A DNA stretch of 32,000 bases from Ktedonobacterales bacterium (lineage in GTDB: Bacteria > Chloroflexota > Ktedonobacteria > Ktedonobacterales > JADMIN01), in the NCBI GenBank assembly GCA_030167145.1, contig CP126532.1:2250001-2282000 (forward strand). The letters are read 5' to 3'. Both the position numbers and the translations under genes were made by a program. Below, piece after piece: positions 4,379-30,913 of the stretch; position 1 is the first letter of the stretch, and each line of letters begins with the position of its first letter. The notes below the pieces were generated by a model, which saw nothing but the letters and a program-made list of their open reading frames with translations, was not told the DNA's origin and made no database searches.

Positions 4379-4426
4379 CTTCCTCATCTGTTTCCTCATC
4401 TGTTTCCTCATCTGTTTCCTCATCTG
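4379..4426. repeat. Tandem 12-bp repeat, 4 copies: (T/C)TTCCTCATCTG on plus, CAGATGAGGAA(A/G) on minus
   Basis: Read directly. Units lie at 4379-4390, 4391-4402, 4403-4414 and 4415-4426. Only the first base of unit 1 differs. Confidence 0.95.
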
Positions 4427-4432
4427 TGCGGA

Positions 4433-26139: not shown

Positions 26140-27018
26140 ATGAATCACAACGGTCCCAATCACACGCCAGCGCACGACAAGCTCCACCCGCAAAGGCGCG
26201 GCGGCCCCTTCGACGGGCTGGCGCTTGCGCTGCAATTCCTGATGATCTTGCCGGTGCGCTCCAAGCGGGCGAATACTACGCTGGATGGGCCGCCGGAGAT
26301 GGCTGCCGCGCTGCCGTGGTTTCCGGTGGTCGGCGCGCTGCTGGGGGGACTGCTGGCGCTGACCGATTGGGCGCTCACGCCGCTCTTTGCCGCGAATGTG
26401 CGCAATGTGGCGCTGCTGGCGCTGGCGGCGCTGCTGACAGGCATGCTGCATCTCGACGGCTTCATTGATTGCTGTGATGGGCTGCTTGGCACACGCACCA
26501 TCGAACGTCGGCTGGAGATTCTGCGCGACAGCCGCGTGGGCGCATACGGCGTGATCGGCGGCGTGCTGCTGGTGCTGGCCCAGTTCGCCGCGCTGGGCGC
26601 GCTGCCCGCAAGCATGCGCCTCTTCGCGTTGGTCGCCGCGCTGCTGCTGGGCCGCTGGGCGATGGTCTACGCGGTGGTGGCGTATCCCTATGCGCGTGCG
26701 ACTGGCGCGGGGGCGGGCTTCCATGCGGGCGGGCGGCATCTGGCGCTGGCGACGCTGGCGACGCTGGCGACGCTGGCGCTGCTGGCGAGCGCATCGCTCT
26801 TGCTCCCTGGCGGATGGTGGACTCCCTCGCACTTCGCGCTGGCGGGCGCGGTCGCGCTGGTTGCGCTGGTTGTCGCGCTGGGGTGGGCGCGCTGGGCCAG
26901 CCACCGGCTCGGAGGCGGTCTGACCGGCGACACCTACGGCGCGCTGAACGAACTGGTGACGCTGGCTGTGCTGGCGCTCCTGCCACCGCTGGCGCACCTG
27001 CTCGTGCGCCTCGCCTGA
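26140..27018 (+). CDS. cobS: Adenosylcobinamide-GDP ribazoletransferase (cobalamin synthase)
   Basis: 292 aa polytopic ORF. N-terminal LALALQFLMILPV, central LHLDGFIDCCDGL and C-terminal GGLTGDTYGALNEL match the CobS/CobV signature segments. Confidence 0.85.
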   Translation: MNHNGPNHTPAHDKLHPQRRGGPFDGLALALQFLMILPVRSKRANTTLDGPPEMAAALPWFPVVGALLGGLLALTDWALTPLFAANVRNVALLALAALLTGMLHLDGFIDCCDGLLGTRTIERRLEILRDSRVGAYGVIGGVLLVLAQFAALGALPASMRLFALVAALLLGRWAMVYAVVAYPYARATGAGAGFHAGGRHLALATLATLATLALLASASLLLPGGWWTPSHFALAGAVALVALVVALGWARWASHRLGGGLTGDTYGALNELVTLAVLALLPPLAHLLVRLA

Positions 27019-27053
27019 GGCAGAAGGAATTCCAATCAAAAACTACGGACCCC

Positions 27054-27081
27054 TTGACATCTTCTAGCTGGTCCGTATAAT
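27054..27081 (+). promoter_or_regulatory. Near-consensus sigma70-type promoter directed into the heptamer array
   Basis: TTGACA (27054-27059), 16 nt spacer, TATAAT (27076-27081). Both hexamers match the consensus perfectly. It lies in the cobS to 27487 intergenic region, about 50 nt before the array. Confidence 0.55.
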
Positions 27082-27129
27082 AGTGGGCGAGAGGCGACTC
27101 CTTCCACTCATTCTGCGCAGTGAGGGAGC

Positions 27130-27458
27130 GCTATCCGCTATCCGCTATCCGCTATCCGCTATCCGCTATCCGCTATCCGCTATCCGCTATCCGCTATCCG
27201 CTATCCGCTATCCGCTATCCGCTATCCGCTATCCGCTATCCGCTATCCGCTATCCGCTATCCGCTATCCGCTATCCGCTATCCGCTATCCGCTATCCGCT
27301 ATCCGCTATCCGCTATCCGCTATCCGCTATCCGCTATCCGCTATCCGCTATCCGCTATCCGCTATCCGCTATCCGCTATCCGCTATCCGCTATCCGCTAT
27401 CCGCTATCCGCTATCCGCTATCCGCTATCCGCTATCCGCTATCCGCTATCCGCTATCC
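27130..27458. repeat. Perfect tandem heptanucleotide array (GCTATCC)x47
   Basis: Read directly. Units start at 27130+7k for k=0..46, giving 329 nt with no mismatch. All three plus frames read AIRYPLS repeats; the minus frames hit TAG. Confidence 0.98.
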
Positions 27459-27486
27459 TGTCATGAGCAGGTAGCACATTCACAGC

Positions 27487-28440
27487 ATGGAGGGTACAGT
27501 GCAAGTTTCCAACCGCATTCTACTCAGGCTTTCGCTTGCGTTGTTTGTTGTGTCAAGTGCTGTGATCTTTGGCGTAGTTAGCCAGGGATTCACTTCTGCA
27601 CCTCATGCTTTTGCTTGTTGTAGCGGCTCCTTTTATGGTGGTGATACCACGAAAGTAGATAATGCGACCCAATCCATTTTTCCGCAATTGCAGGGTGCGT
27701 ATTGCGGCATCACGGATGCTATGGCGGTTACAAACTATGCTGACGAGGACAAAGGCGTAAGTATGGTCTTTACGTCGCAAAATCAGCAGAAGACCGTCGC
27801 GAGCGATAACAAGAATGTCGGTGCGGCAAGTCAATGGGGAGGGGAAGGCAATGCTTATGCGGGAGTGACCAATATATCCGGGGATTTTGGAACAGATCCG
27901 CGATCAGAAGCATATATGTCATACCACTATACTCCAATCGGCTACTATTACCACAACTTTATCTATCGCTGGCAATTTGTACACAGTTCCGCCCCGTCTC
28001 ACAGTCAGCAAGTGCTTGAGGCGACTAGTCTCATGGGACATCAGTTGGTCAACTGGCACGAACCGCTCATTGTGGCCGTTAACGAGGGCTTGCACTTCCT
28101 GTTGGTCACTGGCGTGTACTCAACCAATGATCCTTTCACTTTCTTTCCAGCCGGTATAACGGGACTCACATATCGTGATCCTCAGGATGCCACTCATCAC
28201 ACTGTATCCATCAGTGACTGGACAAATGGTATTTCAGGGGGCTATGACCTGTGGAAATACACCTATGGGAACCCGAATGACCCAGACCCAAACATAGGGC
28301 CTTATACTCCTGGTCCTGGGCAAGAGCATTGGTCAGGCGGGTTCGACTGGATTTCGCGAGATGCGAATACCACGGGCAACCAGTGGAGTCCTGATTGGGC
28401 CTTCAATGCCTACAACAACGCACAGTTGACCACGCCGTAA
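27487..28440 (+). CDS. Signal-anchored/secreted protein with a C39-like (papain-fold) cysteine-peptidase-type motif arrangement
   Basis: 317 aa with markedly lower GC than the flanking genes. N-terminal hydrophobic helix LLRLSLALFVVSSAVIFGVV. Candidate catalytic arrangement: Q(L)QGAYCGITDAMAVTNY ... PLIVAVNEGLHFLLVTGVYS ... GLTYRDPQD, i.e. the Q..C / H / D order seen in the Peptidase_C39-like family. An alternative start is GTG 27499, just after GGAGGG. Confidence 0.55.
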   Translation: MEGTVQVSNRILLRLSLALFVVSSAVIFGVVSQGFTSAPHAFACCSGSFYGGDTTKVDNATQSIFPQLQGAYCGITDAMAVTNYADEDKGVSMVFTSQNQQKTVASDNKNVGAASQWGGEGNAYAGVTNISGDFGTDPRSEAYMSYHYTPIGYYYHNFIYRWQFVHSSAPSHSQQVLEATSLMGHQLVNWHEPLIVAVNEGLHFLLVTGVYSTNDPFTFFPAGITGLTYRDPQDATHHTVSISDWTNGISGGYDLWKYTYGNPNDPDPNIGPYTPGPGQEHWSGGFDWISRDANTTGNQWSPDWAFNAYNNAQLTTP

Positions 28441-28554
28441 CCCGCAAAAGGCCGTGTCGCACGCTAAAAGTGAAGCATATGGTGTAGCGCCCGGAACTCA
28501 TGAATGATCGCCAGAGCCGGATTCGCACACCGAAAAGAAAGGATCCGTGTCAGC

Positions 28555-29412
28555 ATGAGCCATCTATCTCGAACACATCAGAAAAAACCATCGCGTGCTA
28601 GGAAAGGTGGGGCAGCAGCGCCGCCAAAGGCTTCAACCGCAGTAGTGTCGCTCGCCGTGTTCGTGGCGGCGGTCATCTTTACCTTTGGCGCAATAGGGTT
28701 TGCAGGGAGAAATATGTCCACCGTTGCCGCATCCGGCGGCGGAACACCAGTGAGTAGCCCTGGTCATCCTTTCGACCCCGCTAATGCCCAGCATACATGT
28801 GGATTTCCTGGGCTTCCGGCCTGTCCAGCCAATGACATCCAATGGATTCCACTCAAGTCGTCCTCAGCAGGTGATATCATTGCTGCCGCAAAGCAGAGCG
28901 ATTTGTTTACTATCAACGCTTCTGGCCAGGGCGATACCATGAGCCTTGCCAAACTGGGTAATCCAGAGTTGGTCTTGTCAGTACGATCGCCCAGCATTGC
29001 TAATCCAGTAGACTACTACCTGATCCCAGTACTGGATAGCGCGAATGAGACAGCAGGCGTTGCTATGCTTGCGCTTAATCCAGCGCATACAGCCATCCAC
29101 GTGGCTGATATCGTGCAATATTCGACCCCACGCCCGGCTGGGACCATTTCGCTTGTGGGCAAACAATCGGCATTGAACGCGGTTTCGACACAGCGCCATA
29201 TCGCATTGCGAGCAAACACCAGTCCATATCTGATTTATTTTCCTGCAAATTGGGCAGCGGAGGAAACAGGTAAGGTGATATGGGTCGCGGGAGGCGCCAT
29301 GCCATATGATCCGCTGTGGTGTATACCAGGGGCGAATGGTCAAGACTATGTCGTCGGGACTGACCATGCGGTCTACACGATAAGCCAGCTTCCGGTAGCG
29401 TCTAACGCATAG
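28555..29412 (+). CDS. Membrane-anchored extracytoplasmic protein of unknown function
   Basis: ORF 28504..29412 trimmed to the ATG at 28555 (MSHLSRTHQKK...). Basic N-terminus, then a TM helix AVVSLAVFVAAVIFTFGAIGFAG, then a roughly 230 aa extracytoplasmic part made of two similar-looking modules. Low GC. Confidence 0.55.
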   Translation: MSHLSRTHQKKPSRARKGGAAAPPKASTAVVSLAVFVAAVIFTFGAIGFAGRNMSTVAASGGGTPVSSPGHPFDPANAQHTCGFPGLPACPANDIQWIPLKSSSAGDIIAAAKQSDLFTINASGQGDTMSLAKLGNPELVLSVRSPSIANPVDYYLIPVLDSANETAGVAMLALNPAHTAIHVADIVQYSTPRPAGTISLVGKQSALNAVSTQRHIALRANTSPYLIYFPANWAAEETGKVIWVAGGAMPYDPLWCIPGANGQDYVVGTDHAVYTISQLPVASNA

Positions 29413-29582
29413 TTTTTGTATCCGCACGTGCTGCACGTTGGGTATAGATTGTAGGTTGGTGCAGGCATCCTTCGTCCAAATATGCTCTTGAAGGGTGCTT
29501 CTCTTCTTCCTTTCGCTGGCGTAGTTGGGGGCAAGTGTCTCAAGCCCCCTATGCGCGCTGAACACAGAAGATAGGGTGTGGC

Positions 29583-30818
29583 ATGCTCCAGATTTCCAAG
29601 CCAGTAGGTCTGCTCGTCTGTGTGCTTGCGCTCCTGCTGGGCGGCTGCGCGCTCTTTGGCAGCGGCACATCATCTACTTCATCAAAATCCGCCACCGCGA
29701 CGCCACAGCAGCCGGGCCTCACGCCTGGACCACAAAGCACCGCGCAACCGCCAGACGGCTGGTATCGCGTCGCCAATGGCGAACGGTTTGTGGATGACAT
29801 CAATACGCGTGGTCTTACAGTGAGTCCCGCCGATCGGGGACGCCTGGTTGGGTGCATGTTGCCCGCTGGCTATCGCACGGCGGGGCATCCATTTTTTGCC
29901 CTGAGCACGGATGGTGGGCGTACCTGGCAAGCACGTCCGCTTCCTGGCACCTTGCAAGTCGTGGTTTGCCAGGTTGTGGCTGATACGCAACAAGCCGATA
30001 CATTTGTGGTGCATTTGGAAACGCTTGGCTCGCAAACGCTCGCTACTGCGCCAACATATCTCACTACTGATGCCGGCCTGACGTGGCAACTTCTCACGCC
30101 ATCGGACTCAGATGTGCGCAGCATCAGGCCCTGGCCCACAGGATTGGTTGCTGGGCATCTGTTTGCCACGCTCTGCTGCGATCCGCTTACTCCCACTGGG
30201 CAAGATACGGTCGAGCGATTCCCCAATGGGAGCTGGCAGATAGTGAATACCCAGCCACACGATGCGCACCTGCCCTCTCTGCAATCCGCCAACTCGTTCG
30301 CAGTAGACCCGGACGATCCGCAGCGGCTGTATATCGCCGCGAACTATGGAGATGCAAATACTGGCGGGATGGGGATCTTTGCCTCCACTGATGGAGGTGC
30401 GACGTGGAAAGCCATCTATCACATCACCAATTTGAACCTGGCAGTGATCTGGACAGAGCCAGATGGGCGCATCTACGTGCAACAGACCGTGGGCACTGAA
30501 ACACCAACGCAGTACCAGCTCTATTACGGCGCGAATCATGGCGCTAGCTGGACGCCAATCGCGCTGCATGATCGTAGCTCCGGCGGCGAGCAGGTCATCA
30601 CAAGCGCGGCGAATCGCGTCGTCACGGTCACGGCAGGACACGTATTCAGTCTCGACCCATCAACAGGTGTTTACAGCTTGCTGGGCACTGCCCCCGAATT
30701 TGGCGGCGATATTCATGTCGCGGGCTTCTTTCAATGCACCATTGCAGAGGGGACGACGCCGACGCTGGTGTGTGGCAGCCAGTCGGACATCTACGCCCGT
30801 CCACTTCCAGCAGCCTAG
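29583..30818 (+). CDS. Lipoprotein with BNR/Asp-box repeats (beta-propeller, sialidase/Ycf48-like fold)
   Basis: 411 aa. Signal peptide with lipobox LLLGGC. Asp-box repeats STDGGRTW, TTDAGLTW and STDGGATW, plus a degenerate GANHGASW. Confidence 0.75.
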   Translation: MLQISKPVGLLVCVLALLLGGCALFGSGTSSTSSKSATATPQQPGLTPGPQSTAQPPDGWYRVANGERFVDDINTRGLTVSPADRGRLVGCMLPAGYRTAGHPFFALSTDGGRTWQARPLPGTLQVVVCQVVADTQQADTFVVHLETLGSQTLATAPTYLTTDAGLTWQLLTPSDSDVRSIRPWPTGLVAGHLFATLCCDPLTPTGQDTVERFPNGSWQIVNTQPHDAHLPSLQSANSFAVDPDDPQRLYIAANYGDANTGGMGIFASTDGGATWKAIYHITNLNLAVIWTEPDGRIYVQQTVGTETPTQYQLYYGANHGASWTPIALHDRSSGGEQVITSAANRVVTVTAGHVFSLDPSTGVYSLLGTAPEFGGDIHVAGFFQCTIAEGTTPTLVCGSQSDIYARPLPAA

Positions 30819-30913
30819 CCGGCATTGCACGGCGCCTCACCTCCCCGGACTATAATTGCTGGCAGATTGAACAAATCGTTGACCAGCAAGAGCGCATGAC
30901 CGAGGAGGCTGCG

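Follow-up and report, generated by a model that had tools for sequence, protein, structure and literature searches.

Heptanucleotides are reported to be over-represented among the simple sequence repeats (SSRs) of many bacterial genomes, possibly as a result of polymerase slippage (PMC4692102). The GGGNATC arrays of Xanthomonas and Nostoc are intergenic, for the most part transcribed and in some cases arranged as inverted pairs, with up to 26 copies (a 26-mer in Nostoc) (PMC4692102). TAACTGA arrays, which are found in Beggiatoaceae, Cyanobacteria and Bacteroidetes, comprise up to 43 copies and have been proposed to be protein-binding sites (PMC4679880). In Haemophilus influenzae, 11-63 copies of ATCTTTC are transcribed within the 5'-untranslated regions (5'-UTRs) of hmw1A and hmw2A, and expression falls with rising copy number (PMC12721329). 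The hmw system needs a long RNA hairpin, in which ten repeats are paired to a G-rich arm, and which is cleaved by RNase III (PMC12721329). Here we analyse a perfect 47-copy array of the heptamer GCTATCC, located upstream of a putative operon for exported proteins in a Ktedonobacterales bacterium (Chloroflexota). The window, that is, the whole stretch of DNA analysed, comprises 32,000 nt (contig CP126532.1 of assembly GCA_030167145.1, positions 2,250,001 to 2,282,000). A sequence-only reading of this window had known of no described function for such an array in a leader position, a view contradicted by the (ATCTTTC)n arrays in the hmw1A/hmw2A 5'-UTRs (PMC12721329).

The array occupies positions 27130-27458 on the + strand (329 nt), where direct reading of the sequence gives 47 head-to-tail GCTATCC units with zero variant bases. 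Tandem Repeats Finder returns the same feature (27129-27458, period 7, 47.1 copies, 100% matches, 0 indels), so that the count given by the sequence-only reading is confirmed in both ways. There are 55 matches to GCTATCC within the window, compared with 4.6 expected, and with its 7-nt unit repeated in tandem far above chance the array is a heptanucleotide SSR. Its sense strand consists of 141 C, 94 T, 47 A and 47 G. The array sits in one 5.07-Mb contig of a soil Ktedonobacterales bacterium, recorded by NCBI as a metagenome-assembled genome with OJF49_ locus tags, and the copy number of 47 is the value in the sole assembly that spans it. Over 10,983 nt, a separate Logan assembly of SRR22113990 agrees with the contig at 100% identity, and it stops exactly at the 3' edge of the array. 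Because this independent contig break fits a perfect repeat longer than the assembler k-mer, the GCTATCC repeat is very probably present in the reads. The best explanation is a genuine SSR that has expanded recently and in situ via strand slippage. No other strong period-7 array was found in the inspected part of the contig (~42 kb out of 5.07 Mb).

Upstream of the array lies a predicted sigma-70 consensus promoter (TTGACA-16 nt-TATAAT, 27054-27081, + strand; 12/12 match), from which transcription would start near 27088. The window contains no other perfect TTGACA-N16-18-TATAAT, and 100 shuffles did not yield any. The end of the -10 hexamer and the array are 48 nt apart, and neither a further promoter-like site nor a terminator-like site was found between the promoter and gene 1 of the operon. 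If the predicted promoter fires, the array lies inside a leader of ~410 nt. Folding of 27088-27520 yielded -68.7 kcal/mol, compared with -104.5 ± 5.4 kcal/mol for shuffled sequences (z = +6.6), and 100 of the 100 shuffles folded better. Only two short hairpins, one at each array edge, are kept in the predicted centroid structure. The first is a 5'-proximal stem-loop of the leader (27093-27132, + strand), the 3' arm of which takes in the first bases of the array; the second is a small hairpin made of the last repeat unit and its 3' flank (GCUAUCCUGUCAUGAGCAGGUAGC, 27452-27475, + strand), which leaves the Shine-Dalgarno sequence uncovered. The folding of the 104-nt segment around this second hairpin is no better than that of shuffles (z = 0.05).

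The array contains 43% C and 14% G over 329 nt (C/G ~3.1), with 94 YC dimers, and is the most C-over-G-skewed stretch of the + strand (C/G in the window: median 0.94, 95th percentile 1.70). It has the composition of a Rho utilization (rut) site, for which at least 80 nt of C-rich, G-poor, unstructured RNA are expected. A rho gene is not found within the window. The sequence-only reading had put the array about 50 nt past a textbook promoter, had supposed a ~400-nt leader made mostly of the array, and had described the RNA as unstructured and C-rich with a C:G ratio of 3:1. The position and the RNA properties are borne out by the values given above, and the leader is supported on the condition that the promoter fires.

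We favour the reading that the array is a hypermutable SSR in a transcribed leader, the length of which lowers expression of the downstream envelope operon, plausibly via Rho or RNases, and we put its chances at about even. The array lies between the predicted promoter and the start at 27487/27499 of an operon with export signals (genes 1-3), the position expected of an hmw-type rheostat. C-rich, unstructured RNA is the composition on which Rho loads, and genes for exported or surface proteins are the usual targets of SSR switching. We favour length-dependent damping because the promoter is unique, no terminator was found, the leader is unstructured and C-rich, hmw provides a precedent, and exported-protein genes lie downstream. 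In the proposed mechanism, the consensus promoter at 27054-27081 would transcribe all 47 units into the untranslated leader. A longer array would then present more naked C-rich RNA ahead of the first ribosome-binding site, either to Rho, which would load and terminate transcription prematurely, or to RNases. Forty-seven copies would correspond to a low-expression state of the operon, and slippage would generate cells with other expression settings. We infer transcription through the array, the role of Rho or RNases, heterogeneity in copy number at this locus and any selective value. That the unit is prone to slippage is indicated by one orthologous locus found in two metagenomes of the Joint Genome Institute (JGI), where near-identical flanks enclose 13.9 units in one case (L135, 584-680) and 18.9 units in the other (L136, 7416-7547).

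A more far-reaching version of this proposal holds that the array has evolved as a Rho-loading leader that slippage can tune. Its copy number would act as a stochastic rheostat for the operon of the exported papain-like peptidase, in a member of the Chloroflexota that lives free in soil. We consider this version unlikely. To our knowledge, SSR contingency regulation has so far been known mainly from host-adapted pathogens with small genomes. If true, a Rho-loading rheostat would extend this form of regulation to environmental bacteria, in a manner that is independent of hairpins and distinct from hmw. If the rheostat reading holds, the locus would provide a natural test case for repeat length in an untranslated leader setting expression without RNA structure, and phase variation based on SSRs would be hinted at for the first time in Chloroflexota.

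With 47 units, the array is the longest perfect GCTATCC array found in these searches. Perfect arrays of at least 20 copies were found in 0 of 241 million metagenome records, a collection that does not include the source contig, and arrays of at least 12 copies were found in 15 of these records, mostly at contig ends (L134-L148). The longest near-perfect run among the inspected array-derived open reading frames (ORFs) comprised ~20 units. The scarcity of long arrays partly reflects a limit of short-read assembly, since assembly truncates arrays at contig ends. Likewise, true array lengths are under-sampled outside long-read data, because short-read assemblies break at perfect arrays that exceed the k-mer length. 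The 47-copy array belongs to the generic, hypermutable heptamer SSRs, among which it is exceptionally long, and does not represent a new class.

A scan for four GCTATCC copies, with one genome per species, revealed at least 120 stretches, with carriers among Gemmatimonadota, Gammaproteobacteria, Planctomycetota, Acidobacteriota, Omnitrophota, Verrucomicrobiota, Actinomycetota, Chloroflexota and further groups. Among the matches listed, the arrays comprised 4-18 copies, and the gammaproteobacterial carriers were Steroidobacteraceae, Ferrimonas, Oceanisphaera, Hahella and Azomonas. In 840 kb around the matches listed, Tandem Repeats Finder detected 230 arrays with period 7 and at most 62 with any other period; 146 of the 230 were built of the GCTATCC unit and 84 of other units. 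No conserved flanking positions were found across 132 arrays. GCTATCC thus recurs at unrelated intergenic loci of other genomes, as expected of a dispersed family. The sequence-only reading had reserved the term generic SSR family for the case that identical arrays were scattered over many unrelated loci, and for other genomes this is what we find. A mobile element with heptamer arms, such as a miniature inverted-repeat transposable element, was considered and rejected, because flanks are not conserved among the 132 arrays and no direct or inverted repeats were found bracketing the low-GC segment at 27-31 kb of the window.

Three composition-matched control heptamers gave 6, 29 and 15 matches in viral contigs, compared with 6 for GCTATCC, which speaks against GCTATCC as a special recognised motif, since the controls are equally common or commoner. 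Many arrays elsewhere are paired in inverted orientation, with a GC-rich hairpin and a subsequent T-run between them. Pairs of the form (GGATAGC)n ... (GCTATCC)n around a hairpin and T-run resembling a bidirectional terminator were seen in Gemmatimonadales and in gammaproteobacterial metagenome-assembled genomes (L034, 5301-5412; L043, 2026-2136; L067, 2576-2681; L009, 4920-5054; L018, 890-1037), and read-through RNA across such pairs could form a much longer stem. A promoter followed by an array was also considered as a recurrent architecture, as L135, L136 and L138 seemed to show TTGACA ahead of the array, but was rejected because the array of L136 lies between convergent genes. In L135 and L136 the array, between convergent genes, directly adjoins the stop codon of an ORF of 315 aa (Ppx/GppA-like, as judged by eye). 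One 24-kb contig classed as viral (L133, 2349-8018; IMG/VR UViG 3300047160_011294) is crowded with heptamer arrays of differing units, among them CTCCGCT, GCTGACA, TCCGCTA, TTTCCGC, TTAGTAC and GGTAAGA, and some of these arrays are adjacent or inverted. A literature search with 14-mer strings of the repeat found no paper.

Homologous operons in other Ktedonobacterales were compared at five kinds of locus (L122, L123, L124-126, L127 and L128/129). All retain genes 1 and 2, and some also gene 3, as in L122 and L127, where it comes after the other two. The upstream intergenic regions are long (155-525 nt), and in L127 a promoter-like TTGACA-18-TACCAT is located 153 nt ahead of the start. A heptamer array was found upstream of the operon in none of the five kinds of locus. 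Since the homologues have long leaders without an array, the long leader is a trait of the family and the array a recent local expansion. A conserved leader element was rejected: the homologous leaders do not contain the array, and their similarity to the array leader is no better than that of shuffles. A match to the leader of L122 ('GAGGGA..CGCTATC') was discarded likewise, because its score of 20 lies below that of the best shuffle (24).

Several of these points weigh against length-dependent damping. The 47 perfect units could simply have arisen by unchecked neutral expansion within a spacer that tolerates them. GCTATCC arrays elsewhere are located mostly near gene 3' ends (34 between convergent, 44 between tandem and 8 between divergent genes, as assigned with a crude ORF heuristic) and often flank terminator hairpins, so that neither a promoter nor a leader role is a general property of the class. 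Nothing singles out GCTATCC as a recognition motif, given the frequency of the control heptamers. The repeat hairpin of the hmw type and its complementary arm are absent, the GCTATCC leader being less structured than shuffles. Finally, the inspected portion of the source genome amounts to ~42 kb out of 5.07 Mb.

The alternative that survives best is that the array is a neutral passenger, namely a generic heptamer SSR that has undergone runaway slippage in a tolerant spacer, with no selected role and with little or no effect beyond a longer leader. This would agree with the presence of the unit at 120 or more unrelated loci in many phyla without conserved flanks, with the 84 arrays of other heptamers in the same 840 kb, with control heptamers that are as frequent or more so, with the general over-representation of heptamer SSRs and its possible origin in polymerase slippage (PMC4692102), and with the lack of an array upstream of any homologous operon. 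On the other hand, 329 nt of naked C-rich RNA between a strong predicted promoter and the first ribosome-binding site are unlikely to be free of effect. The extreme length, unmatched at 20 or more perfect copies in the 241 million metagenome records, also speaks against a mere passenger, as does the limit of ~20 units in the near-perfect runs of the inspected array ORFs, and the location ahead of exported-protein genes fits known contingency loci. We regard a passive origin of this kind as a serious possibility, though one that we tend to doubt; if it is correct, the array is a curiosity.

It is highly unlikely that the array serves as a multivalent binding platform, either as 47 protein-binding sites at the DNA level or as an RNA sponge, with sense (GCUAUCC)n binding a single-strand RNA-binding protein or antisense (GGAUAGC)n binding a GGA-specific protein of the CsrA type. 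The sense RNA is predicted to be single-stranded and regularly spaced, the antisense strand would hold 47 GGA motifs, and TAACTGA heptamers have been proposed as protein-binding sites (PMC4679880). However, the GGA motifs suggested as a sponge by the sequence-only reading are found on the minus strand only, and no promoter-like site for that strand was found in 24-32 kb, so that a transcript bearing multiple GGA motifs, the hallmark of a CsrA/Rsm-type sponge, is not predicted. An Rfam scan of the window matched no known RNA family. GCTATCC is not enriched over composition-matched controls, and homologous loci lack the array. In addition, neighbouring arrays elsewhere carry many variant units, which makes a single cognate binder unlikely.

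Less probable still is an artefact of assembly or consensus, in which the array, or the count of 47, would have been created by the long-read assembler. One assembly only spans the array, and the JGI record of the contig (3300045419 Ga0494333_323) has 5,069,600 nt while the NCBI record has 5,069,607 nt. The lengths of the two whole records differ by exactly 7 nt, the length of one repeat unit. Against an artefact stand the separate SRR22113990 Logan contig, which is identical up to its stop at the 3' edge of the array, the frequency of GCTATCC arrays in assemblies from many pipelines, and the perfect 329-nt consensus, which speaks for good read support.

The weakest proposal, a coding repeat translated into an (AIRYPLS)n peptide, can appeal to the three open sense frames and to the ORFs at 27083-27466 and 27120-27581, of which JGI called the former as a gene, but is scarcely credible, because GTG 27083 is upstream of the inferred transcription start, a Shine-Dalgarno sequence is absent at both GTG starts, perfect nucleotide identity of a 7-nt unit indicates DNA slippage and not protein selection, and the 'homologues' inspected (8 of 80) turn out to be further heptamer arrays whose contexts are unrelated, one of them in a eukaryotic record.

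The repeat contains no ATG, GTG or TTG, and all three sense frames remain open through the array; stops at 27464 (TGA) and 27472 (TAG) shut two of them, and the third overlaps gene 1 out of frame. A translational fusion or frameshift switch is thereby excluded, and the view of the sequence-only reading that a 7-nt unit leaves no room for selection at the protein level holds, inasmuch as an in-frame fusion to gene 1 is not possible. JGI annotated a 127-aa gene across the array (27083-27466, + strand; (RYPLSAI)n), which was judged spurious because its GTG precedes the inferred transcription start and has no Shine-Dalgarno sequence, and which is best read as an annotation artefact. The second ORF that crosses the array (27120-27581) would encode 153 aa. 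A protein-database search with the array ORF gave 80 matches, none with a Ktedonobacterales source name. The eight matches inspected are 'hypothetical proteins' that likewise derive from arrays, among them partial proteins from Aeromonas and an entry from Chlamydomonas, and look like annotation artefacts of heptamer arrays. Heptamer arrays thus get mis-called as genes, the JGI ORF of 127 aa being an example.

The operon that would be damped consists of three genes on the + strand. Gene 1 (27487-28440) encodes an exported protein for which we tentatively propose a papain-like cysteine-peptidase-type fold. Its start is likelier GTG 27499 than ATG 27487, because GGAGGG, a Shine-Dalgarno sequence read directly at 27489-27494 (+ strand), is located 5 nt upstream of the GTG and because this start agrees with the 313-aa call of NCBI. 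From the end of the array it is 28 nt to ATG 27487 and 40 nt to GTG 27499; the 28-nt gap stated by the sequence-only reading therefore applies to the former start and not to the likelier one. Gene 2 (28504-29412) encodes a membrane-anchored protein, of 285 aa if the NCBI start near 28555 is used. Gene 3 (29583-30818) encodes a putative lipoprotein with BNR/Sortilin-type repeats (BNR 1.6e-9, Sortilin-Vps10 3.6e-8) and the lipobox LLGGC. The translations contain export signals, namely an N-terminal hydrophobic segment ending in AFA in gene 1, a transmembrane anchor in gene 2 and LLGGC in gene 3, and the GC content is 0.547 for 27487-30818 compared with 0.642 for 1-27000. A secreted-protein operon of three low-GC genes, as envisaged from the sequence alone, is supported by these features.

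The gene 1 product has 313-317 aa, depending on the start, and 46 homologues, all with Ktedonobacterales source names, and has no Pfam or NCBIfam match. In the family alignment (39 members), Cys69 and His199 are invariant and Gln63 is nearly so. Gln63 precedes Cys69 by six residues (Q-x5-C), as in papain. The AlphaFold model (pLDDT 84.7) has papain-like cysteine proteases as its best matches in the PDB, and the assignment as a peptidase is tentative since these fold-search matches are weak (best E = 0.011, probability 0.98). Gene 2 always adjoins gene 1 in the loci examined, and could encode an inhibitor or chaperone for the gene 1 product.

The description of the operon as foreign-looking holds only in part: the GC content is indeed lower, but genes 1 and 2, and in some loci gene 3, form a cluster in a family with solely Ktedonobacterales source names. 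The cluster at 27019-30900 is 9 GC points below its surroundings, while those of relatives are only 1-4 points below theirs. In two relatives, transposase genes are found within a few kb of the cluster (DDE_5 in L122, 2510-2848; IS66 in L127, 12503-13915). The GC offset and the nearby transposases in relatives suggest that the three-gene cluster moves within Ktedonobacterales. On the left, the region is bounded by cobS (26140-27018, + strand; CobS 3.7e-48), the last gene of a cobalamin cluster in which it is preceded by cobT, cobU and an HD-domain gene. Between the cobS stop codon and the array, no terminator-like site was found.

The window contains two further repeats. At 4380-4427, a perfect four-copy 12-nt repeat (TTCCTCATCTGT) reads (TDEE)n on the minus strand just past a possible ATG, and may thus form an acidic repeat, in frame, at the N-terminus of a protein. 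At 26744-26788, within cobS, a 9-nt repeat (CGCTGGCGA x5, 91%) encodes LATLATLATLA of a predicted membrane segment.

Compared with the dispersed heptamer families (cyanobacterial STRR-type, GGGNATC and TAACTGA), the array has the same period of 7, intergenic location and long perfect run, its unit varies in copy number at another locus (L135/L136), and identical units recur in distant phyla. Inverted pairs and rarity between divergent genes are also shared, as judged from GCTATCC in other genomes. In contrast, dispersed families have many copies per genome, and one array was found in the ~42 kb read here. The complementary unit GGATAGC, with a single GG run, also falls short of the three or more G per unit that characterise GGGNATC; because it holds only GG runs, the G-quadruplex rationale of GGGNATC is inapplicable. 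TAACTGA arrays are located a few nucleotides from start codons, whereas the GCTATCC array ends 28-40 nt upstream. The likeness to rut sites lies in more than 300 nt of putatively untranslated RNA with a C/G ratio of ~3, 94 YC dimers and hardly any structure predicted, although rut sites are normally not perfect tandem repeats.

The closest functional precedent is hmw1A/hmw2A (PMC12721329; PMC8262952). In both cases a perfect 7-nt tandem array separates a promoter (predicted here) from the start codon of an operon whose products are exported or surface proteins, and the 47 copies are within the natural hmw range of 11-63. By analogy, the falling expression with rising copy number in hmw is the behaviour that we propose for the GCTATCC leader. 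The unit sequence is different, however, and hmw belongs to a host-adapted pathogen, whereas the GCTATCC array is found in an environmental member of the Ktedonobacterales. Furthermore, the hmw repeats are conserved over strains and paralogues, unlike the GCTATCC array, which occurs in no homologous locus. An hmw-like hairpin was sought in the leader and is not present by folding (z = +6.6; short edge hairpins only), and the missing hairpin places the GCTATCC leader outside the hmw system. By analogy, the leader may nevertheless work like hmw without belonging to that system.

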